From Eledone cirrhosa (Eukaryota), in NCBI GenBank assembly GCA_964016885.1, contig OZ024741.1:239444001-239508000 (forward strand): a stretch of DNA of 64,000 nucleotides. Direction: 5' to 3'. Made by a program: the position numbers and the translations under genes. Positions 196-64,000 of the stretch are shown here, piece after piece (position 1 is the first letter of the stretch; every line of letters starts with the position of its first letter). Below the pieces are notes generated by a model. The model saw only the letters and a list, made by a program, of their open reading frames with translations, did no database searches and was not told the DNA's origin.

Positions 196-1249
196 AATGA
201 TTCATTTGGAAATAAATAGGAATAGTTTGAATTATCTCCCCTCTATATATACTACTAAGTTACATATTTAACAAAACAAAGCTTACACTATAATATAACT
301 TGACAATAGATATATATTGACTTATTACTGTTAATATTAAATTTATATTTTAAACTCAAAAACATTTTATGATAATATTTTTGTTCAATAAATCTCTTCC
401 CCAAAATAAAACATACTATTTTGTAATCAACTCTACCTGATGTCAAGTTATAATCTTAACATCTTGGATATCTCCAATCTTTAGCTAGAACTAATTTTGC
501 ATATAAAACCAAATATATTTTTTAAATAAATATCAAATTTTACATTATGACAATGCAAAATATATTTGCAGAAAAAAAATAATTGGACAAGATGCATTTG
601 TTTCCTATACTTGAAATGTAACATTAGGTGAAAAAAATTTAAAACAAATTCTTATAAATTTGTTTGCAATAACTTATTCAAAAAGAGGAATAAAATAATT
701 GGCACAAGATTTCTAAATCATATTGTTATTTAGTCATCTAGATGAATATTTTTTATATCAAACTTACAAGATAGATGTTATTTAACACTATCTAGTAGAT
801 ATGTCATCAAAAGCATTCCAGTTATGACCACAGCCCCAATTTATTGGTCATCTAAGTGATACAACAAAAATATGACAGATCAGATGCGTGTATGAATAGA
901 TAACAGGCAACAATATCAATATTCTTAAATATTTAAGGCCAAAAATTCTGCATTTCTTTGCTAAATTAACCTATAATAATTTTTTTAAAACATGGTTGGC
1001 AATAGTTGAAGTATCAAATATTTCGTATATGTTAACACAAATGTATCAAGAAACATATTTATGAATAAGCAAATCATCCACTGATATATATAAAGCATAT
1101 TTGTAACTTAAATCATTCAAATGAATAATTTACAAAAAAGAAAGAAATAAGCCTAATTTTAACATGAAATTATAGGAATCGGTAGATTTATACATACTGA
1201 AGATTTACAAACATTCACAGATTTCATGTATACACACATACACAATCTA

Positions 1250-1605
1250 TATTTAGTATGTACTAAGGCCATTCAATGTCTGACTGACTAATTCAGTAAA
1301 AATATATAATGATGTGTTATATTGAAATATAATAAACAAGAAAAATATAGTAAATACATCAAAGATGACAGCAAATATTTCCAGAAGTATGTTATATAAA
1401 TCTACAATTGAACATATATTCCTCTCCCTCACTGTTTCTTACAAAATACTTGATAGCCATGTTGGTAAAGGAGACATTCAATGAGAACTAACACAGATCT
1501 AATATGGCCACCATTACAATATTATATTTTGATGTTATAATATAGCTATATATGAGGTTATTATTTTACATGACTGGATAAATAATATAGAATATTAAAA
1601 CTTAC
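1250..1605 (-). promoter_or_regulatory. Conserved non-coding sequence at 5' end of intron 1 (gene off the left edge)
   Basis: Near-identical in all copies (e.g. cttacaaaatacttgatagccatgttggtaaag..cattcaatgagaactaacacagatctaatatggccaccattacaatatt), while sequence further into the intron diverges. Confidence 0.55.
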
Positions 1606-1990
1606 ATCATTGTGTAAAATCCTTTGTTATAAACTGTGAGTTGGTCCCAATGTTCTGTTGTTAATGGTTGTCTGTGTCACTGCTGCTATGGTGTGACAAT
1701 GGCTTCATGTTGATGGAATAGTGTTGGTAGTGAGTCAGTGGGAACCAGCAGTTCCCCTCAGTCTTCTGTGTATGTGTGATGTTTACTGAGTGTGAGTGTG
1801 TGTATGGGAGAGAGAGGTGGGGGAGGGTGATGATCACTCCAGCCTCACTCAGACTAGATGCGTTTCCCCTCACAGAGAAGAGGGAGAGAGAGAGAAGACA
1901 CAATATCAGCTCCACTAACAGTCAGCCATAATATGTCTATATAATACCAACATGTCTGATGTAGAGAGACTGACATAGAAATACTTAGAA
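1606..1990 (-). promoter_or_regulatory. Putative promoter + non-coding exon 1, copy 1 (gene off the left edge)
   Basis: ~385-bp block near-identical in six copies; ends in a - strand GTAAGT donor (GT at 1605-1604); contains TATA-like tattatatag, GA/CT tracts, TCAGT, GTAAACA and TGACTCA. Confidence 0.6.
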
Positions 1991-2423: not shown

Positions 2424-5400
2424 TTAACTAGCAACAACATCTGGTGTTGAAGGTAACTGTCTCTCTGGAGGTTTCACATATCTGTCTTGGTAATGGTCTC
2501 TCTCATTGTTACTTGACACATCAGGTGGGGCACCATAGATTCCTGAAACAAATACATCAACTCAACTTACCAAATAGTTCAGATAGACAGACAATAGGTA
2601 TTTACTGGCATTAGTTATCAATCATTTGTCTACTGCATTCATTGGTCTAATACAAAATAGCAATCATTAAAAAGGTTTTGACTGACCATCCCTAATACAC
2701 TGCAAAATCATAATCACATCAGTATGATAAATTCTTATAATGTAACAAACATGAGAACTGAAATTGCTTTACCTGACATTGCAGGTATTTCTTCATACTG
2801 TCTACTTGACCTTTCACTCCAGCATTGTCCACTACTCTTACGACTGGTCAATGTATCAGTGGGATAGTTAGCAGATGGTCTGTTGTCTCCATAAGATGTC
2901 ACCTCTATAGGTTGACTGTATTTCTGCTGTAAAATAAAGTTACAATACAATGTGTAAAAAGAAATCAAGTTTCTCTATGTACCTAAAATACAATAAATTT
3001 GTAGATATTGATGGGTATATTTATACTGTTGAATTATTGGACCTTTATATACAAAATTATCGATCCTTTTTATCTGACTATCTATCTATCATAACATAAA
3101 AAATATAACCAGTAAATGTTAACTAAAGCTGACAATCATCACAGAAATAATGTCAGCAACTTACTTGAATGGGTGCATGGTCGAGGCTCCAATTCCTCCC
3201 ACCTCTTCCATACAGCACTCCATATGGTCCACAATTTTACCAGCACTATATTACACGGTGTTGATGTGGATTGTGGCAGCCCAGAAATTTGCTACCTGGC
3301 ATATAGCAAATAAATATCTTATAGCTCACACTGGGGAAGAGAAGTGTACATGGCTTTTCTTAGACCTTTTATTGGGTTTAGTATAAGTTTATATTATGTT
3401 TGAATTTGTGGTGCAAGTGAATTTGTGAAGTAATAACAAGCAGGCAATTTGGCAGGTCTGTGTACAGAAGTACAGTTTATAGAGACATCTGAATAGTACA
3501 CAATAGGTATTCCCACAAAGGTAGCTAATATCCTATTAATATATGGTAACAATTCACATCTTAAAATGAATAGAATCATGCACAGCCACATATGAATGGA
3601 TCCTTTCATTCACTTTGTGAAGGCCTTGTACACGATTCATGTAAAAGCAAGTAACATAGAACAAGTAAATGTTGGATTATCATACGTTTGAAAATTTCAC
3701 AGGATACATTTTCATCTCCACATCATAATGATATTATTTCAACCAGATATTCTACACGACAAACCATTAATCAAACTGAAATTGTGAAATCTGAAATATT
3801 CAGATTTATCATTCTGAATTAAAGATGGAAAATATAAATAATAGACTTTACCTTTGTGGATTTCTGAAGAGATCTGTTCATTGTTGATGTCTTCCAGTCT
3901 TCAGGATAGTAATGGCTTCTAGACTGACTATATCTGTCTGATATCTCTCCTCGATTACCTGACATCACAGATACACTGTTGTTACCTTGATAGATCAACT
4001 GTCTCATCTCATTACGACATTGGTATGCCTGTTTCTCTTCTGTTGTTCTAGCTGAGTTATTTCTTACATTGTTACATCTCACAATACACAATGTTATAGA
4101 AACCACAATAGCTATAGATATTATCACAGCTGCTACTACAATGATAATCAACAATGTTGCATCTATTGTGTTATCAGTTGGTACATGGACAGCTGTGAAC
4201 ATTGGTGATGTCTTGTTACTAACAGTCAGTGTCAAAGAGACACTAGTTGTTGCTGACAGAACTGGAGTACCACTGTCTTTCACAACAAATTCCAGTTGAT
4301 ATGATCCGGCATCATTTTGGTAAACTGTACGAGAGTAAGATAAGACACCAGTGAATGAGTCCAGTTTAAATAATTGTCTCTCATTACCTGAAAGGATTTC
4401 ATACCTGAGAAAAGCATTCATGTGACTGTCTATATCAGAGGCTTTCAGAAGTGTGATGTCATTCTTACTTTGTGGATGATAGTGGACATCAAGAGTGAAA
4501 GGGTCAACACTAGGAAATGTAAAATATGGAGTATTATCATTTTTATCTAATACTTCCACTTCAACATTTACTGTGTTATTTAGAGATGGTGTTCCATTGT
4601 CTTTGACAAAAACCTCAAAGTCATAGAAATCTCTGTGTTCTCTGTCTAAAGACTGGTTTGTTGAAATAAAGCCAGAGTTGATAATCTGGAATGGTAGACG
4701 ATATTGGTGTTTATTTCTCAGATGATAACTTAATTCACCTCCCTTACCAGCATCTGGGTCTGTAGCATTGATAAAACCAATAGGGAAATTAGCTTTGTCA
4801 TTCTCATAGGTAAGGAACTTGAATGTATCTTTGGTAAAGTGTGGTTTTACATCATTCACATCTAACACTTGTATTGATAGATCTTTATCAGTTTTCAGAG
4901 AAGGTAATCCTTTATCTTGACAGGAGACAGTAAAGTGATAATGTTCCTGTGTCTCTCTGTCTACTGCTTTCTTTAGAACTATTTTATATTCTTTAGATCC
5001 CATTGACTGTAGTTTGAATGTATCATGTTTAATATTACAGCTGACCTCTCCATTGTGTCCAACATCATTGTCAGTGACCATCACATAAGCAATGAAACTA
5101 CCAACTTTGATATCTTCCAGAATGGTAGCTGTGTTGTGATTCTCTGTAGAAATATAGTTGACATCAATATTTGGAGGATTGTTGTGTTGGTTGATAACAT
5201 TTACCAGAACAGTTGCTATGGCACTGAGTGGTGGATTGCCATTATCTCTGGCTTCAATATATAATTTAAAAAATTCTTCATCAATTTGTGAAGATTTAGC
5301 TAAATATAATTTTCCTGTATTTTCATCTAAATCAAAATATTTTTTCACTTTCTCTGCAGTTTTTGTGGCAAAATAGAAAGATATTTTACCATTCCTACCA

Positions 5401-6200
5401 ATATCTAAATCATTGGCAGATAATGTCACTACTGGAATATTCTTTTTATGTTCATGTTCTATAGACACATTGTAGATACTTTGAGAAAATTCTGGTTTAT
5501 TATCATTTTCATCTTCTACAGATATTTTAACATTAAAAACACTTTGTTTTGGTGGAGTTCCTCCATCTTTAGCAATGACTTCAATATTGTAACTGTCTTT
5601 CTTTTCTCTGTCTAATTTCTTTTCTAAAATAATTTCTAATGTTGATATTCCACCAGCTTCCTTGGAAACACTTAATGCAAATTGCCCTTCATTATCTTTT
5701 AGTTCATATCTAATTAAGCTGTTCTCATATCCCACATCTTTGTCAACAGCATTGGGTATGGCCTTCTTCATACCATCTCGATCTCCTTCCCTAAACACTA
5801 GTGTAATGTCTTTCTCAGGAAACTCAGGTTGGTGGTCATTGATGTCTTCTATTATGACTTTAATTTTCAATATCTTCATAAATGTCTTGGATTTGTGAAC
5901 AGCAACTTTCACTATTTCAAAACATTCTTTCTCATAACTACACACAGACTCAGCATCCAATGTCTGAACAGTGTACAGTTTACCTGTTTTTGTCACATTA
6001 AACAATTGTTCTCCCTTTTGTTGTAGTTGACTAAATGTAATTAAATCCTTATTTTTTAAGAAGGAGCTATCTGATGTCTGTAAGTCAGTAGCAATGTCCC
6101 CTACATAAGTATAGGGATTTCTCTCTTCTTTAACATGGTATGTGATATGTTCACTTAGATAACAGTGGAAGAAAGTCAGTAAAATACACAGAGATAACAT
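2424..6200 (-). CDS. Protocadherin g1; coding exons 6200-3852, 2926/2923-2773, 2542-2424
   Basis: Signal peptide, six cadherin repeats (DxNDxxP, LDRE, AxDxG), EC1 C-x5-C, TM LLIIIVVAAVIISIAIVVSITLCIV. GT-AG introns of phase 0 then 1 join in frame to ...PDVVAS*. 5'UTR acceptor AG at 6250-6249. Confidence 0.95.
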
Positions 6201-6405
6201 CTCTGCCCCTGATGTTATCCTCAGAAATTAGAATTCCAAATATTCCACCTGAAAGAAAAAGATTTAATATATTAATGTGAAGTGAATAGAGTGTTATAAA
6301 CATGGAAACAACATTATACTGTAGCTCCTCGTGTTCTCAATGTGATGTAGAAATGGACTGTATACATATATCTATATATCTATACATATATATATACACA
6401 TACAG

Positions 6406-15118: not shown

Positions 15119-15495
15119 ATTCATTGTGTAAAATCCTTTGTTATAAACTGTGAGTTGGTCCCAATGTTCTGTTAATGGTTGTCTGTGTCACTGCTGCTAT
15201 GGTGTGACAATGGCTTCATGTTGATGGAATAGTGTTGGTCGTGAGTCAGTGGGAACCAGCAGTTCCTCTCAGTCTTCTGTGTATGTGTGATGTTTACTGA
15301 GTGTGAGTGTGTGTGAGAGAGGTGAGGGAGGGTGATGCTTACTCCAGCCTCACTCAGACTAGATGTGTTTCCCCTCACAGAGAAGAGGGAGAGAGAGAGA
15401 AGACACTATATCAGCTCCACTAACAGTCAGCCATAATATGTCTATATAATACCAACATGTCTGATGTAGAGAGACTGACATAGAAATACTTAGAA
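15119..15495 (-). promoter_or_regulatory. Putative promoter + non-coding exon 1 of g1
   Basis: Conserved block; GTAAGT donor at 15118; predicted intron 6249-15118. Confidence 0.6.
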
Positions 15496-15935: not shown

Positions 15936-18900
15936 TTAACTAGCAACAACATCTGGTGTTGAAGGTAACTGTCTCTCTGGAGGTTTCACATATCTGTCTT
16001 GGTAATGGTCTCTCTCATTGTTGCTTGACACATCAGGTGGGACACCATAGATTCCTGAAACAAGTACATCAACTCAACTTACTACATAGTTCATATAGAT
16101 GCCATATATTTTCTGACTGAAATTAGTAATCAATCTCTTGTTTATTATATTCACTAAGCTAAGATATTTAATGTTCTTAGATGTAATCATTTCCATGATA
16201 TAATGATTAAAGGTTGACTGAGTATATAAGTCAGTTCCGTTAATGGTAATACACCCAGTGTATGATGTATACAGTGGTATATCTGTGTAGAAATATATAT
16301 TCACTTATAAAATTTATAAAGATTGATAGAAATAATATCAGATTATTTCATAATTGTGAAAATTAGAAATTATGAAAATCAAATAATGAAATTAATAACA
16401 GATAAGGATAAATAAAATTGTTTTACCTGACATTGCTGGTATTTCTTCATACTGTCTACTTGACCTTTCACTCCAGCACTGTCCACTGCTCTTACGACTG
16501 GTCAATGTATCAGTGGGATAGTTAGAAGATGGCCTGTTGTCTCCATAAGATGTCACTTCTATAGGTTGACTATATTTCTGCAGGACAATATAATTACAAT
16601 AAAGAACATAAAGATATCATTTAGGACATTATACCTGAAATATACCCAATATCTAGATATTGATGTGTACATGTATACTATTGAAATATTGGACCATTAT
16701 GTATAAAAGAATCAGTTGTATAGATCCTGTTTATTTGATCATTTGTCATTATACCAAATAAAATGTATCCAGTACAGGTTACAAATAATCATTTCATAGC
16801 TTACTCTGGATATAAACGTAGATGTAGCTTTTTAGGTCTATGTTAATGCATATGATATAAGTGGATGAATAAGCATGTTTTCAGTGCAAAGTTGAATTCA
16901 TAGCAGGCAGGAAATTTGGCATGTTTATCAACAGAAGTAGTTTCCAAAACAATCTGAAATTGTGTAAAATAGATGATACAACAAAGTTAAAATCCTATTG
17001 ACAAAGTTAATCTTGCTATAAATTACTAGATTCTGGCTCCACAGTGTATGACTGCATCATTGATTCAAGGCACTCATTAAAATCCATTTCCAGAAAATAC
17101 CTTACCATTTGGATTATTGTGTTTCAAAAGTAAATCATCATAACCTTATTTTTTTCAACCAGATATATTCTATACTAAAACCAATCAGAAAGTAAACGGA
17201 CTACCTACATTGGTAATTTTAAACAGTAACTGCAGAGTTGAAAATATTCAGCTGTTTCATTTTTAATTAAATGTTATTCAACAGATAGAAAATATTAGAT
17301 AGAGCTTACCTTTGTGGATTTCTGAAGAGATCTGTTCATTGTTGATATCTTCCAGTCTTCAGGATAGTAATGACTTCTAGACTGACTATATCTGTCTGAT
17401 ATCTCTCCTCGATTACCTGACATCACAGATACACTGTTGTTACCTTGATAGATCAACTGTCTCATCTCATTACGACATTGGTATGCCTGTTTCTCTTCTG
17501 TTGTTCTAGCTGAGTTATTTCTTACATTGTTACATCTCACAATACACAATGTTATAGAAACCACAATAGCTATAGATACTATCACAGCTGCTACTACAAT
17601 GATAATCAATAATGTTGCATCTATTGTGTTATCAGTTGGTACATGGACAGCTGTGAACATTGGTGATGTCTTGTTACTAACAGTCAGTGTTAAAGAGACA
17701 CTAGTTGCTGCTGACAGAACTGGAGTACCACTGTCTTTCACAACAAACTCCAGTTGATATGATCCAGCATCATTTTGGTAAACTGTGCGAGAGTAAGATA
17801 AGACACCAGTGAATGAGTCCAGTTTAAATAACTGTTTCTCATTACCTGAAAGGATTTCATACCTGAGAAAAGCATTCATGTGACTGTCTATATCAGAGGC
17901 TTTCAGAAGTGTGATGTCATTCTTACTTTGTGGATGATAGTGTATATCAAGAGAGAAAGGATCAACACTAGGAAATGTAAAATATGGAGCATTATCATTT
18001 TTATCTAATACTTCCACTTCAACATTCACTGTGTTATTTAGAGATGGTGTTCCATTGTCTTTGACTAAAACCTCAAAGTCATAGAAATCTCTGTGTTCTC
18101 TGTCTAAAGACTGGTTTGTTGAAATAAAGCCAGAGTTGATAATCTGGAATGGTAGACGATATTGGTGTTTATTTCTCAGATAATAACTTAATTCACCTCC
18201 CTTACCAACATCTGGGTCTGTAGCATTGATAAAACCAATAGGGAAATTAGCTTTGTCATTCTCATAGGTAAGGAACTTGAATGTATCTTTGGTAAAGTGT
18301 GGTTTTACATCATTCACATCTAAGACTTGTATTGAGAGATCTTTATCAGTTTTCAGAGAAGGTAATCCTTTATCTTGACAAGAGACAGTAAAGTGATAAT
18401 GTTCCCGTGTCTCTCTGTCTACTGCTTTCTTTAGAACTATTTTATATTCCTTAGATCCCATTGACTGTAGTTTGAATGTATCATGTTTGATATTACAGCT
18501 GACTTCTCCATTGTGTCCAACATCATTGTCAGTGACCATCACATAAGCAATGAAACTACCAACTTTGATATCTTCCAGAATGGTAGCTGTGTTATGATTC
18601 TCTGTAGAAATGTAGTTGACATCAATATTTGGAGGATTGTTGTGTTGGTTGATAACATTTACCAGAACAGTTGCTATGGCACTGAGTGGTGGACTGCCAT
18701 TATCTCTGGCTTCAATATATAATTTTAAAAATTCTTCTTTATCAATTTCTGAAGATTTAGCTAAATATAACTTTCCTGTATTTTCATCTAAATTAAAGTA
18801 TCTTTTCATTTTCTCTGCAGTTTTCGTAGCAAAATAGAAAGATATTTTACCATTCCTGCCAATATCTAAATCATTGGCAGATAATGTCACAACTGGAATA

Positions 18901-19661
18901 TTCTTTTTATGCTTATGTTCTATAGAGACATTGTAGATACTTTGAGAAAACTGTGGTTTATTATCATTTTCATCTTCTACAGATATTTTAACATTCAAAA
19001 TACTTTGTTTTGGTGGAGTTCCTCCATCTTTAGCAATAATTTCAATATTGTAACTGTCTTTCTTTTCTCTGTCTAATTTATCTTCTAAAATAATTTCTAA
19101 CGTTGATATTCCACCTGCTTGTTTGGAAACACTTAATGAAAATTGTCCTTCATTATCAAGAAGCTCATATTTAATTAGACTGTTCTCATATCCCACATCT
19201 TTATCAACCGCATTGGGTATTGATCTCTTGGTGTTTTTACTATCAGTTTCAGAAAACTGAATATTGACTTGTTCTGTTGGAAACTCAGGTTGGTGGTCAT
19301 TGATGTCTTCTATTATGACTTTAATTTTCAATATCTTCATAAATGTCTTGGATTTGTGAACAGCAACTTTCACTATTTCAAAACATTCTTTCTCATAACT
19401 ACACACAGACTCAGCATCCAATGTCTGAACAGTGTACAGTTTACCTGTTTTTGTCACATTAAACAATTGTTCTCCCTTTTGTTGTAGTTGACTAAATGTA
19501 ATTAAATCCTTATTCTTTAAGAAGGAGCTATCTGATGTCTGTAAGTCAGTAGCAATGTCCCCTACATAAGTATAGGGATTACTCTCTTCTTTAACATGGT
19601 ATGTGATATGTTCACTTAGATAACAGTGGAAGAAAGTCAGCAAAATACACAGAAATAACAT
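15936..19661 (-). CDS. Protocadherin g2; coding exons 19661-17310, 16577-16427, 16054-15936
   Basis: Same architecture and intron phases as g1; 5'UTR acceptor AG at 19711-19710. Confidence 0.95.
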
Positions 19662-19892
19662 CTCTGCTCTTGATGTTATCCTCAGAAATTAGAATTCCAA
19701 ATATTCCAACTGAAAGAAAAAGATTTAATATATTAATGTGAAGTGAATAGAGTGTTATAAACATGGAAACAACATTATACCGTAGCTCCTCAAATTGTGT
19801 GTGGTCTGTATAATACATCACAAAAAAGAGCAAAGCTCATATTCTTAATATGACATAGAAATAGACCACATTATATATATATATATATACAC

Positions 19893-20988: not shown

Positions 20989-23900
20989 TAGGAATTTGAA
21001 ATTGGCTGTATCCAATAAATGGGATTTCAATGGAACATACTGAGGCAGAAAATTATTGATTTCTAACTTAGACACAAGGCTAGCAAATTCGGAGGAGGCC
21101 AAAGTTGATTAAATTAACCTAATACTTAACTGGCATTTTATTTTATTAACCCAGGAAGGATGAACGGTAAAGTTAACCTCAGAAATGATTCATTTGGAAA
21201 TAAATAGGAATAGTTTGAATTATCTCCCCTCTATATATACTACTAAGTTACATGTTTAACAAAACAAAGCTTACACTATAATATAGCTTGACAATAGATA
21301 TATATTGACTTATTACTGTTAATATTAAATTTATATTTTAAACTCAAAAACATTTTATGATAATATTTTTGTTCAATAAATCTCTTCCCAAAAATAAAAC
21401 ATACTATTTTGTAATCAACTCTACCTGATGTCAAGTTATAATCTTAACATCTTGGATATCTCCAATCTTTAGCTAGAACTAATTTTGCATATAAAACCAA
21501 ATATATTTTTAAAATAAATATCAAATTTTACATTATGACAATGCAAAATATATTTGCAGCAATAAAAATAATTGGACAAGATGCATTTGTTTCCTATACT
21601 TGAAATGTAACATTAGGTGAAAAAAATTTAAAACAAATTCTTATAAATTTGTTTGCAATAACTTATTCAAAAAGAGGAATAAAATAATTGGCACAAGATT
21701 TCTAAATCATATTGTTATTTAGTCTTCTAGATGAATATTTTTTATATCAAACTTACAAGATAGATGTTATTTAACACTATCTAGTAGATATGTCATCAAA
21801 AGCATTCCAGTCATGACCACAGCCCCAATTTATTGGTCATCTAAGTGATACAACAAAAATATGACAGATCAGATGCGTGTATGAATAGATAACAGGCAAC
21901 AATATCAATATTCTTAAATATTTAAGGCCAAAAATTCTGCATTTCTTTGATAAATTAACCTATAATAATTTTTTTAAAACATGGTTGGCAATAGTTGAAG
22001 TATCAAATATTTTGTATATGTTAACACAAATGTATCAAGAAACATTTATGAATAAGCAAATCATCCACTGATATATATAAAGCATATTTGTAACTTAAAT
22101 CATTCAAATGAATAATTTACAAAAAAGAAAGAAATAAGCCTAATTTTAACATGAAATTATAGGAATCGGTAGATTTATACATACTGAAGATTTACAAACA
22201 TTCACAGATTTCATGTATACACATACACAATCTATATTTAGTATGTACTAAGGCCATTCAATGTCTGACTGACTAATTCAGTAAAAATATATAATGATGT
22301 GTTATATTGAAATATAATAAACAAGAAAAATATAGTAAATACATCAAAGATGACAGCAAATATTTCCAGAAGTATGTTATATAAATCTACAATTGAACAT
22401 ATATTCCTCTCCCTCACTGTTTCTTACAAAATACTTGATAGCCATGTTGGTAAAGAAGACATTCAATGAGAACTAACACAGATCTAATATGGCCACCATT
22501 ACAATATTATATTTTGATATTATAATATAGCTATATATGAGGTTATTATTTTACATGACTGGATAAATAATATAGAATATTAAAACTTACATCATTGTGT
22601 AAAATCCTTTGTTATAAACTGTGAGTTGGTCCCAATGTTCTGTTAATGGTTGTCTGTGTCACTGCTGCTATGGTGTGACAATGGCTTCATGTTGATGGAA
22701 TAGTGTTGGTAGTGAGTCAGTGGGAACCAGCAGTTCCCCTCAGTCTTCTGTGTATGTGTGATGTTTACTGAGTGTGAGTGTGTGTATGGGAGAGAGAGGT
22801 GGGGGAGGGTGATGATCACTCCAGCCTCACTCAGACTAGATGCGTTTCCCCTCACAGAGAAGAGGGAGAGAGAGAGAAGACACAATATCAGCTCCACTAA
22901 CAGTCAGCCATAATATGTCTATATAATACCAACATGTCTGATGTAGAGAGACTGACATAGAAATACTTAGAAAATAGAGGTTATATTAACAAAATGTGGT
23001 TGATGTTGTTAATGGTATTTAATATAAAATGTATTTAAAATATAAACAATAACAGTTAGTATGTGGTTGACCTAATTTTAAACTAACTCTCCCACTCAGG
23101 GTATATTTAATAAAATCTACAGATGTTATGTTACCTCGCATCATTATCAGTTTTGTCCATCTTTACATGTAAAATATATTTCCTCAAACATAAAATTTAC
23201 AATATATTGTACTTATTATTTATCTATACCATAATTCAATTTATATTTTCAAGTATAAATTGTAAAGTCTATTATTATTGTAGAACATTCCCTATTATTA
23301 TATTTACCTTAATATTATCAACAAACTAATATACTTCTGTAGTTTTAATTATTGTGTGGATCTTGAAGGTGATATTTCTGTTGTGTTAATTTCTCAGTCT
23401 GACTTAACTAGCAACAACATCTGGTGTTGAAGGTAACTGTCTCTCTGGAGGTTTCACATATCTGTCTTGGTAATGGTCTCTCTCATTGTTACTTGACACA
23501 TCAGGTGGGGCACCATAGATTCCTGAAACAAATACATCAACTCAACTTACCAAATAGTTCAGATAGACAGACAATAGGTATTTACTGGCATTAGTTATCA
23601 ATCATTTGTCTACTGCATTCATTGGTCTAATACAAAATAGCAACCATTAAAAAGGTTTTGACTGACCATCCCTAATACACTGCAAAATCATAATCACATC
23701 AGTATGATAAATTCTTATAATGTAACAAACATGAGAACTGAAATTGCTTTACCTGACATTGCAGGTATTTCTTCATACTGTCTACTTGACCTTTCACTCC
23801 AGCATTGTCCACTACTCTTACGACTGGTCAATGTATCAGTGGGATAGTTAGCAGATGGTCTGTTGTCTCCATAAGATGTCACCTCTATAGGTTGACTGTA

Positions 23901-26160
23901 TTTCTGCTGTAAAATAAAGTTACAATACAATGTGTAAAAAGAAATCAAGTTTGTCTATGTACCTAAAATACAATAAATTTGTAGATATTGATGGGTATAT
24001 TTATACTGTTGAATTATTGGACCTTTATATACAAAATTATCGATCCTTTTTATCTGACTACTATCTATCATAACATAAAAAATATAACCAGTAAATGTTA
24101 ACTAAAGCTGACAATCATCACAGAAATAATGTCAGCAACTTCTTACTTGAATGGGTGCATGGTCGAGGCTCCAATTCCTCCCATCTCTTCCATACAGCAC
24201 TCCATATGGTCCACAATTTTACCAGCACTATATTACACGGTGTTGATGTGGATTGTGGCAGCCCAGAAATTTGCTACCTGGCATATAGCAAATAAATATC
24301 TTATAGCTCACACTGGGGAAGAGAAGTGTACATGGCTTTTCTTAGACCTTTTATTGGGTTTAGTATAAGTTTATATTATGTTTGAATTTGTGGTGCAAGT
24401 GAATTTGTGAAGTAATAACAAGCAGGCAATTTGGCAGGTCTGTGTACAGAAGTACAGTTTATAGAGACATCTGAATAGTACACAATAGGTATTCCCACAA
24501 AGGTAGCTAATATCCTATTAATATATGGTAACAATTCACCCTTAAAATGAATAGAATCATGCACAGCCACATATGAATGGATCCTTTCATTCACTTTGTG
24601 AAGGCTTTGTACACGATTCATGTAAAAGCAAGTAACATAGAACAAGTAAATGTTGGATTATCATACGTTTGAAAATTTCACAGGATACATTTTCATCTCC
24701 ACATCATAATGATATTATTTCAACCAGATATTCTACACTACAAACCATTATTCAAACAGAAATTGTGAAATCTGAAATATTCAGATTTATCATTCTGAAT
24801 TAAAGATGGAAAATATAAATAATAGACTTTACCTTTGTGGATTTCTGAAGAGATCTGTTCATTGTTGATGTCTTCCAGTCTTCAGGATAGTAATGGCTTC
24901 TAGACTGACTATATCTGTCTGATATCTCTCCTCGATTACCTGACATCACAGCTACACTGTTGTTACCTTGATAGATCAACTGTCTCATCTCATTACGACA
25001 TTGGTATGCCTGTTTCTCTTCTGTTGTTCTAGCTGAGTTATTTCTTACATTGTTACATCTCACAATACACAATGTTATAGAAACCACAATAGCTATAGAT
25101 ATTATCACAGCTGCTACTACAATGATAATCAACAATGTTGCATCTATTGTGTTATCAGTTGGTACATGGACAGCTGTGAACATTGGTGATGTCTTGTTAC
25201 TAACAGTCAGTGTTAAAGAGACACTAGTTGTTGCTGACAGAACTGGAGTACCACTGTCTTTCACAACAAACTCCAGTTGATATGATCCGGCATCATTTTG
25301 GTAAACTGTACGAGAGTAAGATAAGACACCAGTGAATGAGTCCAGTTTAAATAATTGTCTCTCATTACCTGAAAGGATTTCATACCTGAGAAAAGCATTC
25401 ATGTGACTGTCTATATCAGAGGCTTTCAGAAGTGTGATGTCATTCTTACTTTGTGGATGATAGTGGACATCAAGAGAGAAAGGGTCAACACTAGGAAATG
25501 TAAAATATGGAGCATTATCATTTTTATCTAATACTTCCACTTCAACATTTACTGTGTTATTTAGAGATGGTGTTCCATTGTCTTTGACAAAAACCTCAAA
25601 GTCATAGAAATCTCTGTGTTCTCTGTCTAAAGACTGGTTTGTTGAAATAAAGCCAGAGTTGATAATCTGGAATGGTAGACGATATTGGTATTTATTTCTC
25701 AGATGATAACTTAATTCACCTCCCTTACCAGCATCTGGGTCTGTAGCATTGATAAAACCAATAGGGAAATTAGCTTTGTCATTCTCATAAGTAAGGAACT
25801 TGAATGTATCTTTGGTAAAGTGTGGTTTTACATCATTCACATCTAACACTTGTATTGAGAGATCTTTATCAGTTTTGAGAGGAGGTAATCCTTTATCTTG
25901 ACAGGAGACAGTAAAGTGATAATGTTCCTGTGTCTCTCTGTCTACTGCTTTCTTTAGAACTATTTTATATTCTTTAGATCCCATTGATTGTAGTTTGAAT
26001 GTATCATGTTTAATATTACAGCTGACTTCTCCATTGTGTCCAACATCATTGTCAGTGACCATCACATAAGCAATGAAACTACCAACTTTGATATCTTCCA
26101 GAATGGTAGCTGTGTTGTGATTCTCTGTAGAAATATAGTTGACATCAATATTTGGAGGAT
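20989..26160. repeat. Segmental duplicate of 1-~5180
   Basis: Near base-for-base identity, including introns and intergenic DNA, ending at the EC3/EC4 boundary. Confidence 0.9.
22591..22972 (-). promoter_or_regulatory. Putative promoter + non-coding exon 1 of g2
   Basis: Conserved block; GTAAGT donor at 22590; predicted intron 19710-22590. Confidence 0.6.
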
Positions 26161-27187
26161 TGTTCTGTTCACTGATAACATTTATCTGAATTATTGCAAG
26201 GGAACTGAGAGGAGAACTGCCATCATCTTTGGCTTCCACATATAATTTAAATTTCTGTTTTTTTCCAATTTCTAATGATTTTTTCAAGTATAATTTTCCA
26301 GTAATTTCATTCAAACGAAAATTATTTCTTGACTTTACATCTGTTTTCTGACTGAAATAGAAATATATTTTACCATTCCTACCAATATCTAAATCATTGG
26401 CAGATAATGTCACTATTGGAATATTTTTTTTATGGTCATGTTCCATAGAAACATTATAAATAGTCTGGGTAAATTGTGGTGTGTTATCATTTTCATCTTC
26501 TACAGATATTTTAACATTTAAAATACTTTGTTTTGGTGCAGTTCCTCCATCTTTTGCAATGACCTCAATATTGTAGCTGTCTTTATTTTCTCTGTCTAAT
26601 TTCTTTTCTAAAATGATACCTAATGTTGATATTTCATCAGCTAATTTTGATTGAGATAAGGAAAAATGTTCATCATTATTTTTTAATTCATATTTAATTA
26701 AACTGTTCTTAAAACCCACATCCTTATCAATGGCACTGGGTATTGTTTTCTTCATACCATCTCGATCTCCTTCACGAAACACTAAACTGATTTCTTTCTC
26801 AGGAAACTCAGGTTGGTGGTCATTGATGTCTTCTATTATGACTTTAATTTTTAAAATCTTCATAAATGTCTTGGATTTGTGAACAGCAACTTTAATTATT
26901 TCAAAACATTCTTTCTCATAACTACACACAGACTCAGCATCCAATGTCTGAACAGTGTACAGTTTACCTGTTTTTGTCACATTGAACAATTGTTCTCCCT
27001 TTTGTTGTAGTTGACTAAATGTAATTAAATCCTTATTCTTTAAGAAGGAGCTATCTGATGTCTGTAAGTCAGTAGCAATGTCCCCTACATAAGTATAGGG
27101 ATTTCTCTCTTCTTTAACATGGTATGTGATATCTTCACTCAGATAACAGTGGAAGAAAGTCAGTGAAATACACAGAAATAACAACAT
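23404..27187 (-). CDS. Protocadherin g3; coding exons 27187-24833, 23906/23903-23753, 23522-23404
   Basis: Same architecture; most divergent EC3; 5'UTR acceptor AG at 27244-27243. Confidence 0.95.
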
Positions 27188-28899
27188 CTCTGGTCTTGGT
27201 GCTAATACAGTGTCCTGGGAAAGATGACTATGAATATTTAATCTGAAACAGAAACAATTTCAATATATTAATGGTGTCTGATATGTTAAGTCTTGTCTTC
27301 CATTTTTTTCCTCATGAAAACAAGTGTGCAAAATGATATATAAATGAAATCCGATTAAGTTTCTTGATGTGAATTTGTGTACTAAAACGGTTAATGCTCT
27401 ATTTTGGCAGAGACATGATGACAATCAAAACACCTGCACTGTTTATCTTTCACTTTAGTTTTATTATTTATCTGGTAATTAATCAATCATTCAGTTGATT
27501 AATATTAAAATATAGGCATAATAAGAAGCTTTGAGTTATCTCTCTTGAATATGAAGTAATTTCAGATATTACACCATTTTCAATAAAACAAAGAAACATC
27601 AGATTCTAAATACTATAAGATCCTGAAAAGGTAGTATACAAATCAACATCATAAAGATATTAACCAAAAATAGTAATAATGTAATATAGTTATGAGTTAT
27701 CTTTTGTGTATTCTGTAAAACTGAACCAGATTACAGATTGAAATTTCCCAATTATTATAATCTATATTAAACAGTATTGACAAGATATCTATTTACTAAC
27801 TGCTATTGATAAATTCAGATATATATACTAAACTGAATAACATTTGATATTGTTAATATTACCACTTCAACAATTCTTCTCTCAGAAATAACATATTTTG
27901 TTAAAACCTGAAGTTCAAATAAAGTTATAATTTTAACATCTTGGATGTCACCTTAAAAACAAATTATTTAGACTGCATTCACTACATGATTCTCCTATTT
28001 GTTATATCAGCAGTTTAAGCCTTTTCCATTTTGTTTATTTATGTAAAAAATTTATGAAATTAGAATTAAAATATGAAACAAGAGATCATGTTTTTTCTTT
28101 TATTACAGTACTTGAGTACAATAAATTGTGACAGTATTAATAATTAACATTTTACAACAGATAGAATATTTGTCACAATTAGTACATGAATATTGTTCAT
28201 GCAGAATTAAGGCTACAGATTCATTATATCTCATCTTCCTAAATGTTACTAAAATTTATAACAGGAAATTATAGAAATATCATGGATATATTTGGCCTGT
28301 TATCTAAAATGTATTAATGATTGTATATTCAAAACACTAAAGATATAACATATTTGTATATATAATTTCAATCAAATCAATAAGACATTATAATATGAAG
28401 CTAGTCATCAGTAGACATATACACAGAAATAAAGACGTTTTCTTGTATGTATAAAATTATAGAATTGTGTAGAAACAAAATTTATTTATTTGAGTGTCTC
28501 ATATTATTAACATTAAACCTACATTATTGTATATATGTCAATGGTATTCTTGTTCAATACTTAGTCTATAATAAGACCATAAAATATATAACAGAATAAT
28601 ACAGTAAAAATATATAACGTAATGTTAAAATATAATTAAGATAAATATTGTAAATACATCAAAGATGACAGCAAATATTTCCAGAAGTATGTTATATAAA
28701 ACTACAATTGAACATATATTCCTCTCCCACTGTTTCTTACAAAATACTTGATAGCCATGTTGGTAAAGAAGACATTCAATGAGAACTAACACAGATCTAA
28801 TATGGCCACCATTACAATATTATATTTTGATGTTATAATATAGCTATATATGAAGTTATTATTTTACATGACTAAATAAATAAGCATGATAAAACTTAC

Positions 28900-29279
28900 A
28901 TTCATTGTGTAAAATCCTTTGTTATAAACTGTGAGTTGGTCCCAATGTTCTGTTGTTAATGGTTGTCTGTGTCACTGCTGCTATGGTGTGACAATGGCTT
29001 CATGTTGATGGAATAGTGTTGGTAGTGAGTCAGTGGGAACCAGCAGTTCCTCTCAGTCTTCTGTGTATGTGTGATGTTTACTGAGTGTGAGTGTGTGAGA
29101 GATGGGTGGGGGAGGGTGATGCTTACTCCAGCCTCACTCAGACTAGATGTGTTTCCCCTCACAGAGAAGAGGGAGAGAGAGAGAAGACACAATATCAGCT
29201 CCACTAACAGTCAGCCATAATATGTCTATATAATACCAACATGTCTGATGTAGAGAGACTGACATAGAAATAATTAGAA
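28900..29279 (-). promoter_or_regulatory. Putative promoter + non-coding exon 1 of g3
   Basis: Conserved block; GTAAGT donor at 28899; predicted intron 27243-28899. Confidence 0.6.
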
Positions 29280-29685: not shown

Positions 29686-32600
29686 TTAACTAGCAACAAC
29701 ATCTGGTGTTGAAGGTAACTGTCTCTCTGGAGGTTTCACATATCTGTCTTGGTAATGGTCTCTCTCATTGTTGCTTGACACATCAGGTGGGACACCATAG
29801 ATACCTGAAATAAGTACATCAACTCAACTTACCACATAGATCACAGACAGACAATAGATATTTACTGACATTAGTTATCAATCTTTTGTCAACTGCATAC
29901 ACTGGACTAAGATATAAAATGATCATTAAAGAAGTATTTTATCAATCCTTAGAAATCATCATCAGATGAGGCTAATAATTGTTTCTACTTTAGGCACAAG
30001 GCCAGCAATTACCCAGTGCATTACTGGATGAGGCTAATAATGTCATACGTATCTGTTTGATATATACATCATCAGTGTAATGTATGTTTTTTCATGCTGT
30101 CATTAGTGGGATGAGTTCAGACAGAGATCTACAGGCAGATGCCCTTCTTGATAGTGAACCCAACACTTTTTGTAAGTAAGGTACAATTCTTTGCACATCT
30201 AAGCACTGTTCAACTAGAGCTTTCTATACATGGAACATAAACAAATATCCCCAAAAGCAATGAGTCCATGAAATGAGAAGAAACAAACACAAACACATAT
30301 AAACACATAAAAAACATATATAAAGGCTTCTTTATGTTTCTGCCTACCAAATTCATTCATAAGGCATTGTTGATCTGAGGCTATAGTAGAAGACATTTGT
30401 ATAATGTGCAGTGGGATAGAATCTAACACCAAATGGTTGCCAAAAAGTTAATAGCTAATTTTCATAATATTGATAAATAATCGTTTCTTAATCACTAGCA
30501 TTGGACATTATTTAATGAATGAATGCATGAGTGAAATTATTTTACCTGACATTGCTGGTATTTCTTCATACTGTCTACTTGACCTTTCACTCCAGCACTG
30601 TCCGCTACTCTTATGACTGGTTAATGTATCAGTGGGATAGTTAGAAGATGGTCTGTTGTCTCCATAAGATGTCACCTCTATAGGTTGACTGTATTTCTGC
30701 TGTAAAATATTGTAACAAGTTAGAGAGCAAGGATTGAATTTTTGAATGTAGACTTAAAATATCTTCAATTTCTAGCTAAAAATGGGTGTTAAAATATTGG
30801 ACCAATATAAACAAAAACATCAATTCTATAGATCCTCATCTGACCACTTTCATTCATACCATAGAAAATGTATCTAGTACAATTTATTCTGAGGATTTAG
30901 ATGTTGCAAAAAGTGATTTTAAAGCTTAACATATTTCGGAAAGATATCTAGTAATACAAGCTATGTCAATCAAAGGGTTGAAAGGATTCATTGTTGTGTC
31001 AACAACATAATCTTACATGTAATGGTGCAACAATAAAACGTATCCAGTACACCCAAATAAAGTGGTTGGTGATAAAAAAGGAAACCAGATGTTGCAACAA
31101 TATCAAAATTGGAATATATACTAGCAAGATATGGTTCCTGGGTCATCTGAGGGAACAGTAGTTCAGATTAAATACTGACTTGGTCTGTAATAACCCATTT
31201 AACCTATCTTATCAAGGGAAAATAGGCATTAAATGATAATTGTTTCTACTTTTGGCACAAGGCCAGCAATTATCCCAGTGTATTACGACCCCGTAAGGAT
31301 GAAAGGCAATGTTAACCTCGGCGGGATTTGAACTAAGTTCCTAAAGGGAAGTAACTCTTTCCTGCTAAGCATGGTGTCCGACCCTCTACCGATACCGCCA
31401 ATCCACCGCCCTTTGCTGTAAATGATAATGGTGATCCCACAGAAGAAAAAAATAAACAAAGCACTTTAGGCCTTCCTTTATTGGTGATAGTCAAAATTTA
31501 TATTGTGAGGGAGTTGTTGGTACAAAATTGGTGTCATAGTAGTCGGGGAAATTCACTGGTTACTATGCAGAAATACATTTTACAAAGGTATCAGAATTGT
31601 AAAACATAGTGTGGGTCCACAATGGTAGCTAAAATCCAATTGAGAAGTGTTAAGTTATTCTAGCTAATAATTAAGTGATTCTGGTTCTACAATATATGAA
31701 TACAACATTGATCCTCATGTCAGTTGCCTTGTTGGGAATTCATTGACCAACAAGTTACAAAGAGCAACTCATAGATTACCTAACAATTGAAAAGAGTACA
31801 AAATACATTTATATTTCTAAATTGTGATACATTATCAACCAGATATTCTAAAAAAAAAAATATTCACGATTAAAAAGTGGACATAAATTGGTAATTTAAG
31901 AAGTAAACATGAAATTTATGATATTCAATTATATTGTTCTTAATTTACAGATAGTGAAAAAACAAATCGTTTACCTTTGTGGATTTTTGAAGAGATCTGC
32001 TCATTGTTGATGTCTTCCAGTCTTCAGGATAGTAATGACTTCTAGATTGACTATATCTGTCTGATATCTCTCCTCGATTACCTGACATCACAGATACACT
32101 GTTGTTACCTTGATAGATCAACTGTCTCATCTCATTACGACATTGGTATGCCTGTTTCTCTTCTGTTGTTCTAGCTGAGTTATTTCTCACATTGTTACAT
32201 CTCACAATACACAATGTTATAGAAACCACAATAGCTATAGATACTATCACAGCTGCTACTACAATGATAATCAACAATGTTGCATCTATTGTGTTATCAG
32301 TAGGTACATGAACAGCTGTGAACATTGGTGATGTCTTGTTACTAACAGTCAGTGTTAAAGAGACACTAGTTGTTGCTGACAGAACTGGAGTACCACTGTC
32401 TTTCACAACAAACTCCAGTTGATATGATCCAGCATCATTTTGGTAAACTGTGCGAGAGTAAGATAAGACACCAGTGAATGAGTCCAGTTTAAATAATTGT
32501 CTCTCATTACCTGAAAGGATTTCATACCTGAGAAAAGCATTCATGTGACTGTCTATATCAGAGGCTTTCAGAAGTGTGATGTCATTCTTACTTTGTGGAT

Positions 32601-34323
32601 GATAGTGTATATCAAGCGTGAAAGGGTCAACACTAGGAAATGTAAAATATGGAGCATTATCATTTTTATCTAATACTTCCACTTCAACATTCACTGTGTT
32701 ATTTAGAGATGGTGTTCCATTGTCTTTGACAAAAACCTCAAAGTCATAGAAATCTCTGTGTTCTCTGTCTAAAGATTGGTTTGTTGAAATAAAGCCAGAG
32801 TTGATAATCTGGAATGGTAGACGATATTGGTGTTTATTTCTCAGATGATAACTTAATTCACCTCCCTTACCAACATCTGGGTCTGTAGCATTGATAAAAC
32901 CAATAGGGAAATTAGCTTTGTCATTCTCATAGGTAAGGAACTTGAATGTATCTTTGGTAAAGTGTGGTTTTACATCATTCACATCTAACACTTGTATTGA
33001 GAGATCTTTATCAGTTTTGAGAGGAGGTAATCCTTTATCTTGACAGGAGACAGTGAAGTGATAATGTTCCTGTGTCTCTCTGTCTACTGCTTTCTTTAGA
33101 ACTATTTTATATTCTTTAGATCCCATTGACTGTAGTTTGAATGTATCATGTTTAATATTACAGCTGACCTCTCCATTGTGTCCAACATCATTGTCAGTGA
33201 CCATCACATAAGCAATGAAACTACCAACTTTGATATCTTCCAGAATGGTAGCTGTGTTGTGATTCTCTGTAGAAATATAGTTGACATCAATATTTGGAGG
33301 ATTGTTGTGTTGGTTGATAACATTTACCAGAACAGTTGCTATGGCACTGAGTGGTGGATTGCCATTATCTCTGGCTTCAATATATAATTTAAAAAATTCT
33401 TCATCAATTTCTGAAGATTTAGCTAAATATAATTTTCCTGTATTTTCATCTAAATCAAAATATTTTTTCACTTTCTCTGCAGTTTTTGTGGCAAAATAGA
33501 AAGATATTTTACCATTCCTACCAATATCTAAATCATTGGCAGATAATGTCACTACTGGAATATTCTTTTTATGTTCATGTTCTATAGACACATTGTAGAT
33601 ACTTTGAGAAAATTCTGGTTTATTATCATTTTCATCTTCTACAGATATTTTAACATTAAAAACACTTCGTTTTGGTGGAGTTCCTCCATCTTTAGCAATG
33701 ACTTCAATGTTGTAACTGTCTTTCTTTTCTCTGTCTAATTTCTTTTCTAAAATAATTTCTAATGTTGATATTCCACCAGCTTCCTTGGAAACACTTAATG
33801 CAAATTGCCCTTCATTATCTTTTAGTTCATATCTAATTAGGCTGTTCTCATATCCCACATCTTTGTCAACCGCATTGGGTATGGCTTTCTTCATACCTCT
33901 ACCATCTCCTTCCCTAAACACTAGTGTAATGTCTTTCTCAGGAAACTCAGGTTGGTGGTCATTGATGTCTTCTATTATGACTTTAATTTTCAATATCTTC
34001 ATAAATGTCTTGGATTTGTGAACAGCAACTTTAACTATTTCAAAACATTCTTTCTCATAACTACACACAGACTCAGCATCCAATGTCTGAACAGTGTACA
34101 GTTTACCTGTTTTTGTCACATTAAACAATTGTTCTCCCTTTTGTTGTAGTTGACTAAATGTAATTAAATCCTTATTTTTTAAGAAGGAGCTATCTGATGT
34201 CTGTAAGTCAGTAGCAATGTCCCCTACATAAGTATAGGGATTTCTCTCTTCTTTAACATGGTATGTGATATGTTCACTTAGATAACAGTGGAAGAAAGTC
34301 AGTAAAATACACAGAGATAACAT
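29686..34323 (-). CDS. Protocadherin g4; coding exons 34323-31975, 30699/30696-30546, 29804-29686
   Basis: Same architecture; ectodomain nearly identical to g1; 5'UTR acceptor AG at 34373-34372. Confidence 0.95.
30310..30440 (-). mobile_element. Degraded SINE head fragment in a g4 intron
   Basis: ctatagtagaagacatttg..gtgcagtgggatagaatc resembles the reverse complement of a tRNA-derived SINE head; absent from the other paralogs. Confidence 0.45.
31235..31415 (-). mobile_element. tRNA-derived SINE with Nin/Deu-like core
   Basis: - strand: A-box-like tggcggtatcgg, B-box agttcaaatccc, core gcctttcatccttacggggtcg; fragments also at ~29975-30030 and 62650-62790. Confidence 0.7.
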
Positions 34324-34556
34324 CTCTGCCCTTGATGTTATCCTCAGAAATTAGAATTCCAAATACTCCACCTGAAAGAAAAAGATTTAATATATTAATG
34401 TGAAGTGAATAGAGTGTTATAAACATGGAAACAACATTATACCGTAGCTCCTCAAATTGTGTGTGGTGTAACACATCAATAATACTCATGTTCTCAATGT
34501 GATGTAGAAATGGATTGTATACATATATCTTTACATACATATATATATATATATAT

Positions 34557-52400: not shown

Positions 52401-53400
52401 GTTATCAGTTGGTACATGGACAGCTGTGAACATTGGTGATGTCTTGTTACTAACAGTCAGTGTTAAAGAGACACTAGTTGTTGCTGACAGAACTGGAGTA
52501 CCACTGTCTTTCACAACAAACTCCAGTTGATATGATCCAGCATCATTTTGGTAAACTGTGCGAGAGTAAGATAAGACACCAGTGAATGAGTCCAGTTTAA
52601 ATAATTGTCTCTCATTACCTGAAAGGATTTCATACCTGAGAAATGCATTCATGTGACTGTCTATATCAGAGGCTTTCAGAAGTGTGATGTCATTCTTACT
52701 TTGGGGATGATAGTGGACATCAAGAGTGAAAGGGTCAACACTAGGAAATGTAAAATATGGAGCATTATCATTTTTATCTAATACTTCCACTTCAACATTC
52801 ACTGTGTTATTTAGAGATGGTGTTCCATTGTCTTTGACAAAAACCTCAAAGTCATAAAAATCTCTGTGTTCTCTGTCTAAAGACTTGTTTGTTGAAATAA
52901 AGCCGGAGTGGATAATCTGGAATGGTAGATGATATTTGTGTTTATTTCTCAGATAATAACTTAATTCACCTCCCTTACCAACATCTGGGTCTGTAGCATT
53001 GATAAAACCAATAGGGAAATTAGCTTTGTCATTCTCATAGGTAAGGAACTTGAATGTATCTTTGGTAAAGTGTGGTTTTACATCATTCACATCTAACACT
53101 TGTATTGAGAGATCTTTATCAGTTTTCAGAGGAGGTAATCCTTTATCTTGACAGGAGACAGTGAAGTGATAATGTTCCTGTGTCTCTCTGTCTACTGCTT
53201 CCTTTAGAACTATTTTATATTCTTTAGATCCCATTGACTGTAGTTTGAATGTATCATGTTTGATATTACAGCTGACTTCTCCATTGTGTCCAACATCATT
53301 GTCAGTGACCATCACATAAGCAATGAAACTACCAACTTTGATATCTTCCAGAATGGTAGCTGTGTTGTGATTCTCTGTAGAAATATAGTTGACATCAATA
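46432..53400. repeat. Segmental duplicate of ~11553-18620
   Basis: Near identity through TE remnants, exon-1 block, tail exons and introns, up to EC4 of g5/g2. Confidence 0.9.
49884..50268 (-). promoter_or_regulatory. Putative promoter + non-coding exon 1 of g4
   Basis: Conserved block; GTAAGT donor at 49883; predicted intron 34372-49883. Confidence 0.6.
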
Positions 53401-54434
53401 TTTGGAGGATTATTGTGTTGGTTGATAACATTTACCATCACAGTTGCTATGGCACTAAGAGGAGGGATGCCTCCATCTCTGGCTTCAATATATAATTTTA
53501 AAGTGTTTTTTGTGTTACTTTCTAATGGTTTTATTAAGAAGATTTCCCCAGTATTTTCATCAATATTAAAGTATCCTTTCATCTTCTCATTAGTTTTCTG
53601 ACTAAAATCGAATGATATTTTACCATTCCTGCCAATATCTAAATCAACGGCAGATAATGTCACTACTGGAATATTCTTTTTATGTTTATGTTCTATAGAA
53701 ACATTATAGATTGTCTGGGCAAATTGTGGGGTATTATCATTTTCATCTTCTACAGATATTTTAACATTTAAAATACTTTGTTTTGGTGGAGTTCCTCCAT
53801 CTTTAGCAATGACTTCAATATTGTAACTGTCTTCTTTTTCTCTGTCTAATTTCTTTTCTAAAATAATTCTTACAGTTGATATTCCATCTGCACGTTTTGA
53901 AACTGATAAAGAAAAATGGCCATTATCTTTTTTTAACTTATATGTAATTAAACTGTTTTGATACCCAATGTCTTTGTCTACAGCATTTTCTATTGATCTT
54001 TTGGTGCCTTTTCCATCAGTTTCAGAAAACTGTATATTGACTTGTTCAGTTGGAAATTTAGGTTCGTGGTCATTGATGTCTTCTATTATGACTTTAATTT
54101 TTAATATCTTCATAAATGTCTTGGATTTGTGAACAGCAACTTTAACTATTTCAAAACATTCTTTCTCATAACTACACACAGACTCAGCATCTAATGTCTG
54201 AACAGTGTACAGTTTACCTGTTTTTGTCACATTGAACAATTGTTCTCCTTTTTGTTGTAGTTGACTGAATGTAATTAAATCCTTATTCTTTAAGAAGGAG
54301 CTATCTGATGTCTGTAAGTCAGTAGCAATGTCCCCTACATAAGTATAGGGAATACTCTCTTCTTTAACGTGGTATGTGATATGTTCACTTAGATAACAGT
54401 GGAAGAAAGTCAGTAAAATACACAGAAATAACAT
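50706..54434 (-). CDS. Protocadherin g5; coding exons 54434-52083, 51350-51200, 50824-50706
   Basis: Same architecture; 5'UTR acceptor AG at 54493-54492. Confidence 0.95.
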
Positions 54435-63733: not shown

Positions 63734-63834
63734 ATATATATATAGTGTGTGAAGATATACGTGTTATAACAAATTTTGGTTTATTACTATTTACATAAAA
63801 CCTAGATTTTTCTGTATATGTCAATGTTATTCAT

Positions 63835-64000
63835 GTTCAATATTCGGTATGTACTAAGAAATTAGAATGTCTGACTGAATAATTCAGTAAAAATATATAA
63901 TGGTGAGTTATGTTAAAATATAATAAACAATATAAATATAGTAAATATATCAAAGATGACAGCAAATATTTTGAGAAGTATGTTATATAAAACTACAATT
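63835..64000 (-). promoter_or_regulatory. Conserved intron-1 5' element of g6 (exon 1 predicted just beyond the window)
   Basis: Homologous to 1250-1410. Confidence 0.55.

Follow-up and report, generated by a model that had tools for sequence, protein, structure and literature searches.

Cephalopod protocadherins (PCDHs) are known to be clustered, to have multiplied by whole-gene duplication and to undergo gene conversion (PMC9068888, PMC6339937), and the passages of the cephalopod protocadherin literature that were searched deal with the number of genes, their synteny and their expression in bulk tissue or by cell type, and leave promoters aside. Here, we analyse one 64,000-nt window of the Eledone cirrhosa assembly GCA_964016885.1 (contig OZ024741.1, positions 239,444,001-239,508,000), which holds a head-to-tail array of six complete multi-exon protocadherin genes and a ~385-bp non-coding block repeated behind each of them; copies are compared within this window only. 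In the full-text passages searched (Albertin 2015 and Wang & Ragsdale 2017 lay outside the comparison), no shared non-coding first exon or homogenised promoter is described for these arrays. We read the block as a 5' cassette, in a gene family already known, for which the searched literature gives no earlier description.

The open reading frame (ORF) list of the window contains six long minus-strand ORFs, which encode six-repeat protocadherins. All six genes (A to F, labelled by their ATG; Table 1) are intact and on one strand, with products of 873-875 amino acids, and share one exon plan, in which a large exon is followed by one of 151 nt and then by the last coding exon. Exons 3 and 4 are present separately in each gene, with no shared constant exons. 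Pfam finds Cadherin_2 and five Cadherin stretches in both genes scanned. Among the top 35 matches the closest proteins are octopod protocadherins from O. sinensis (74-88% identity), A. hians (71-85%) and O. vulgaris (74-85%); O. bimaculoides proteins are also among the best database relatives, and the maximum identity over all relatives is 88%. The C-terminal tails agree with NCBI models, and a transmembrane (TM) segment and an octopod-type tail are present. All membership features tested agree in assigning the array, on its sequence, to the coleoid clustered protocadherin genes, for which passages of Albertin 2022 (PMC9068888) and Jiang 2022 (PMC9795677) likewise describe head-to-tail six-repeat genes, recent duplication and conversion.

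A BLAST search with positions 1606-1990 returns six full-length copies of the block, with identities to the first of 100, 99.2, 96.6, 96.6, 95.8 and 95.6%, and a minus-strand GTAAGT ends each of them (Table 1). The original prediction had described six such near-identical copies at these positions, packed ~430 bp behind the previous gene's stop codon, and both points hold: the measured distances are 434, 433, 429, 402, 438 and 417 bp. The 3' halves of the units represent only four independent lineages (A=C, B=E, D and F), between which the block is 94-97% identical, on a par with the coding exons, at a global identity of 26-60% for introns 2 and 3 and 64-71% for the stop-to-block gap. Past GTAAGT, conservation runs on for ~350 bp at 82-91% global identity between lineages, ending near 1246, and then falls to ~50%. 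The predicted extent of ~385 bp is thus right for the repeat and too short for the full conserved unit, an island of ~750 bp that spans ~2030 to 1246 in the first copy. Across the intervals from stop codon to next acceptor, the island is the sole segment common to all lineages at >85%, even in the 1657-nt interval; the remaining intron pieces that different lineages have in common do not exceed 85% identity or are simple-repeat or long interspersed nuclear element (LINE) matches. A 36-nt run at 1495-1530, ~75-110 nt into the putative intron and carrying GCCATATT, is invariant in the six copies.

All six large exons have a pyrimidine-rich YAG acceptor ahead of the ATG (at 48, 48, 55, 48, 57 and 55 nt), and sequence inspection here agrees with the original prediction of a polypyrimidine-AG in every one; each gene therefore needs an upstream exon. 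As a motif the putative donor GTAAGT is weak, and the hexamer is not enriched in the window (25 seen versus 44 expected); its place at a conservation boundary is what argues for it. Among the four lineages, 1 of 30 columns is variable just before the donor versus 13 of 30 just after GTAAGT, and coding donors show a similar jump in variability just past the donor. A motif-blind change-point scan on interior alignment columns placed the break between -10 and +2 of the donor G in 35 of 48 runs: 22 of the 24 that used substitutions only and 13 of the 24 that counted gaps. Whole-block gap-counting runs often pick microsatellite indels, and with end gaps counted the break falls near the alignment end in 18 of 18 runs. 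Given the obligatory upstream exons and a variability step like that at coding donors, the reading of the block as a non-coding exon that would feed the next gene is well supported. It had been proposed as both the non-coding first exon and the promoter of that gene; the acceptors and the conservation step favour the first part, whereas the second is only plausible.

Stops occur in all three frames of all six block copies. A tblastn comparison with 120 homologues gives no credible match in a block frame (one weak, stop-containing match lies outside the block), and among nine long or fused octopus models no block translation exceeds the 45% identity display filter. A coding exon is ruled out by the stops and by the lack of a credible protein match. 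The fused models P0001, P0121 and P0129 look like annotation joins (four of the nine models were examined in full). A structured non-coding RNA is also ruled out: Rfam gives one sub-threshold match only over 1000-3500, the block fold is no stabler than shuffles (z 0.75, with 77 of 100 shuffles as good) and the window contains no tRNA. The absence of meaningful terminal or internal repeats rules out a mobile element such as a tRNA-derived short interspersed nuclear element (SINE) or a miniature inverted-repeat transposable element. An ATG just before the donor would open a junction ORF of 6-10 codons in all five predicted splices, ending ahead of the main ATG. Inside the putative exon 1, TGACTCA at 1731-1737, which we take to be an AP-1-like site, is present in all four lineages scanned (0.24 expected by chance).

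The island is probably the 5' end of the downstream gene, made up of promoter-proximal DNA, a non-coding exon 1 and a regulatory intron start; that the block contains the promoter is plausible. Exon 1 would be ~180-365 nt long, with its 3' end at GTAAGT, and would be spliced to the acceptor 48-57 nt before the ATG of the next gene. The transcript of the upstream gene would end within the ~430-nt gap, a length that fits a typical octopus 3' untranslated region (UTR), given the O. vulgaris median of 350-380 nt reported in a passage of PMC9699675. Donor use, a transcription start in the block and polyadenylation in the gap are what we infer from the DNA. Function would have kept the island alignable, and gene conversion would keep equalising its copies, as it does the tail exons, the TM segment and extracellular cadherin (EC) repeats EC1 and EC4-EC6. 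EC2-EC3 diverge, so that equivalent start sites may stand before different specificity modules. If the start sites are equivalent, whatever makes the paralogues differ in expression would have to lie beyond the block (in position, distal enhancers, interference by read-through or chromatin state) or be chance.

Several observations weigh against a promoter-bearing first exon. Conservation recovers 35 nt past GTAAGT, reaching 64-100% per 25-column bin for ~300 nt, unlike at coding donors, and this suggests either a regulatory intron start or longer conversion tracts. By core-promoter consensus sequences, three initiator-like motifs and several TATA-like ones are present, at the frequency that chance predicts. 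At the 5' edge of the block, TCAGTC is a perfect initiator match, and the same edge makes a plausible splice acceptor. The gaps between stop codon and block in lineages A/C and F have no canonical AATAAA, only variants; B/E and D do have AATAAA, which is expected by chance anyway, and no conserved poly(A) signal stands out. The observed/expected CpG ratio of the block is 0-0.06, similar to coding exons (0.08-0.12) and below several intron and LINE stretches (0.31-0.51). On small counts, this depletion is closer to what a gene body shows than to an unmethylated start, and passages of PMC9476566 place octopus methylation mainly on gene bodies. Lastly, the whole block has 16 variable columns of 376 versus 10 of 168 at gene-converted four-fold sites (P=0.39), so identity alone is no proof of selection.

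Part of this evidence would also fit an internal non-coding relay exon of 356-364 nt (AG...GT), carried on read-through or long pre-mRNAs that start further upstream. The translated gene would then be set by splicing, from block to block or from block to a near or distal large exon, and by polyadenylation, not by promoter choice. Invariance starts ~21 nt upstream of TGTCAG, much as it does at the acceptors of exons 3 and 4, and a CTAAK branch-like motif is present; both the gene-body-like CpG depletion and the A/C and F gaps without AATAAA point the same way. Passages of Styfhals 2022 describe splitting PCDH gene fusions caused by read-through transcripts in O. vulgaris data (PMC9712504), where these transcripts are not tied to the block element. 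Because the 5' edge is equally an initiator or an acceptor and read-through PCDH transcripts are reported, the relay exon remains a live rival, albeit an unlikely one. There is an additional AG 14 nt upstream of the edge AG in three of the four lineages, the 3' UTR gap has no conserved strong upstream donor, the fused models P0001 and P0121 join genes without any block translation, and 0 of 120 homologues credibly match a block frame. Pairing between the post-donor region and the next acceptor does not exceed shuffles in four of five adjacent pairs (15 shuffles each), the fifth being ~1.4 standard deviations better; Dscam-like RNA pairing between these regions is rejected for want of an excess over shuffles. 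Passages of Albertin 2022 also attribute cephalopod diversity to full-gene duplication, not to shared-exon splicing (PMC9068888).

The ~350 bp of conservation on the intron side could instead mean that the island acts as DNA (an enhancer, an insulator or a Polycomb/YY1-type element) or as a 3' UTR or termination element of the upstream gene, with an incidental GTAAGT and first exons elsewhere. A non-functional GTAAGT does exist in intron 3 of five of the six genes; it lies 28 nt before the exon-4 acceptor and cannot act as a donor, as the resulting intron would be 28 nt long. Clusters of GCCAT (5), GAGAG (8-10) and YGAGYG (3) within <1 kb also resemble Drosophila Polycomb response elements (PREs; motif list in a passage of PMC6735708). 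GCCAT occurs 5 times per island versus 0.6-0.9 expected, a count reached by 0 of 69 background tiles; GAGAG comes mostly from two CT repeats (microsatellites), YGAGYG is borderline, and GTGT and RRGGYG are not enriched in the island. The enriched motifs were chosen after sequence inspection and are therefore a lead only. The likeness to a PRE is one of motif resemblance alone, GAGA factor and Zeste are known as arthropod or insect proteins, and YY1 may be linked to the island motifs. We regard a DNA or termination element as improbable, given that it leaves the conservation step at GTAAGT unexplained and the obligatory upstream exons unplaced, the island being the one conserved segment in common, in the 1657-nt interval as well, and that the block has no RNA structure (z 0.75).

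The array carries a signature of gene conversion. In 14 of the 15 gene pairs the synonymous distance reaches 0.19-0.40 in EC2-EC3, against 0.03-0.07 in EC4-TM, the exception being the recent A-D pair (0.04 in EC2-EC3), and GC content at third codon positions (GC3) is 0.29-0.34 in the uniform parts versus 0.20-0.21 in EC2-EC3. Nonsynonymous distance (pN) is 0.08-0.19 in EC2-EC3 for 14 of 15 pairs and at most 0.034 elsewhere. Divergence of the six proteins is confined to EC2-EC3 (5150-5810 and equivalents), with EC1, EC4-EC6, the TM segment and the tail homogenised. High GC3 and low synonymous distance by region are given as the signature of gene conversion in passages on fugu and Xenopus Pcdh (PMC1852091, PMC4978886). 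The units are mosaics with exchange points inside EC4-TM (Table 1): the 5' half of gene A is D-like and its 3' half C-like, and B and E share 3' halves, not EC2-EC3. Since a block moves together with the tail upstream of it and also with EC1-EC3 downstream, linkage is silent on which gene it serves.

Conversion tracts alone might then have homogenised functionless DNA that was duplicated with the genes. Consistent with this, the block is as variable as converted synonymous sites, and B and E differ at 6 positions in the block versus only 4 in the other 3.3 kb, which suggests recent overwriting of the block or sequencing error. Introns 2 and 3 and the 3' UTR gap, however, have decayed to 26-71% between lineages; conversion therefore follows exons, and an isolated island at 95% would need prior constraint, which makes a functionless origin highly improbable. 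The last 185 nt of the block are slightly tighter than converted four-fold sites (3 of 181 versus 10 of 168, P=0.046 uncorrected). The near-identity of the copies is no proof of selection for equal promoters, yet as sequences they are equivalent in practice. The copies had been called interchangeable, which is apt for their sequence (95.6-99.2%), a likeness well explained by gene conversion.

The proposed analogy to vertebrate clustered Pcdh promoters breaks down at the level of motifs. Passages of PMC7811963 and PMC4978886 describe there a CGCT/CTCF element (the conserved sequence element, CSE) ~200 bp before the ATG and a choice tied to CpG methylation. In all four lineages the island has 0 CGCT and 0 matches to a CTCF core (three mismatches allowed), and each block has 0-1 CpG. 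Judged by these motifs, stochastic choice in this array, if there is any, cannot use the vertebrate CTCF/CpG route. Both systems are tandem arrays with similar promoter-side elements, and the pattern of diverged EC2-EC3 with converted EC1 and EC4-EC6 was reached independently in the octopod array. The octopod element is ~750 bp long and is separated from the ATG, 1.7-15.5 kb away, by an intron, and the octopod genes are complete, unlike the variable exons of Pcdh alpha and gamma, which join shared constant exons; the Pcdh-beta arrangement, like the octopod array, is without them. In vertebrates, Pcdh expression is stochastic and monoallelic in single neurons. Published single-cell data show broad and cell-type-specific expression of octopus PCDHs, with ~21 genes per neuron; passages of PMC9795677 and of two bioRxiv preprints report such expression as well, and in all these passages we found no test of stochastic PCDH choice.

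A choice independent of CTCF and CpG methylation, made through chance-switched GCCAT/GA-rich starts or through relay exons that splice past whole genes, is possible, though we lean against it; stochastic choice by a YY1/Polycomb-type route is speculative. Passages on chelicerate sDscam (PMC9258826) describe another case of invertebrate neuronal adhesion diversity built from tandem units with their own promoters, in which alternative promoters are combined with cis- and trans-splicing, a precedent for trans-splicing between similar units. The repeated sDscam cassettes are coding and are spliced to shared constant exons with RNA pairing, whereas the repeated octopod exon is non-coding, the gene bodies are complete and no pairing was detected. 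If true, chance-switched starts or relay splicing would add a third way of barcoding neurons to Dscam1 splicing and the choice of promoters in vertebrate Pcdh.

For the regulation of the independently expanded cephalopod protocadherin clusters, the window supplies a defined ~750-bp element repeated before every gene, together with explicit predicted junctions and copy-diagnostic differences. This gives a concrete DNA element with which to study how octopus neurons choose among wiring genes. It also shows that a vertebrate-like pattern, with EC2-EC3 diverged and the rest converted, arose separately in an octopod without CTCF/CpG features.

Table 1 Features of the protocadherin array and its repeated island in the 64,000-nt window; exon, intron and promoter assignments are predictions
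Feature	Position	Strand	Details
Block behind gene A: putative promoter-proximal region and non-coding first exon of the next, off-window gene	1606..1990	-	Donor G 1605; repeat, conservation step, each of the three frames interrupted by stops
Block copy behind gene B	15119..15495	-	Donor G 15118; predicted junction with acceptor 6248 of gene A over an 8870-nt intron
Block copy behind gene C	22591..22972	-	Donor G 22590; predicted junction with acceptor 19709 of gene B over a 2881-nt intron
Block copy behind gene D	28900..29279	-	Donor G 28899; predicted junction with acceptor 27242 of gene C over a 1657-nt intron
Block copy behind gene E	49884..50268	-	Donor G 49883; predicted junction with acceptor 34371 of gene D over a 15512-nt intron
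Block copy behind gene F	57578..57959	-	Donor G 57577; predicted junction with acceptor 54491 of gene E over a 3086-nt intron
Post-donor flank of a seventh copy, upstream of gene F	63785..64000	-	Block itself past the window end
Putative donor GTAAGT at the conservation step	1600..1605	-	Agrees with the U1 complement at 7-8 of 11 positions; coding donors agree at 6-7
Putative intron-1 start, conserved, AT-rich	1246..1599	-	82-91% between lineages; two GCCATNTT sites (1456-1463 and 1501-1508)
Upstream ORF, 15 codons	1661..1708	-	Present in 6 of 6 copies
Block 5' edge	1968..1990	-	Pyrimidine tract ending TGTCAG/TC; initiator TCAGTC (1973-1968) or 3' splice site (first exon base 1969)
Alternative core-promoter pair	1914..1943	-	TATATAGA (1943-1936), with the A of TTAGT 27 nt further on; at chance level
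Protocadherin gene A	2424..6248	-	Large exon 6248-3852 (ATG 6200), 151-nt exon 2923-2773, last coding exon 2542-2424
Protocadherin gene B	15936..19709	-	ATG 19661; exon plan as in gene A
Protocadherin gene C	23404..27242	-	ATG 27187; exon plan as in gene A
Protocadherin gene D	29686..34371	-	ATG 34323; exon plan as in gene A
Protocadherin gene E	50706..54491	-	ATG 54434; exon plan as in gene A
Protocadherin gene F	58379..62147	-	ATG 62092; exon plan as in gene A
Mosaic duplications	1-6205 vs 20989-27192; 12124-19802 vs 46974-54579; 3785-6330 vs 31910-34453		BLAST/sequence comparison
SINE-like repeat copies	11850-12059, 13375-13606, 20568-20813, 36619-36867, 46729-46968, 48140-48381	both orientations	Sequence comparison

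Within the genes, a NAGNAG acceptor (ACAGCAG) at exon 3 (2923-2926 and equivalents in C, D and F) makes a one-residue Q insertion possible, and NCBI homologues are known both with and without this residue. The 28 nt before the acceptor of the last exon, which start with the non-donor GTAAGT (2565-2570 and equivalents in B, C, D and E), are nearly invariant; they may act as a silencer of splicing or mark where a conversion tract ends.

Two LINE-type ORFs with RVT_1 and a PHD finger (8864-11206 and 34710-36578, both on the plus strand) lie in the two longest of the putative first introns, in antisense orientation to the genes and with long (TA/CA)n tracts on either side. A dispersed repeat of 200-250 bp, SINE-like by appearance and unrelated to the block, occurs in both orientations in the intron-1 regions.
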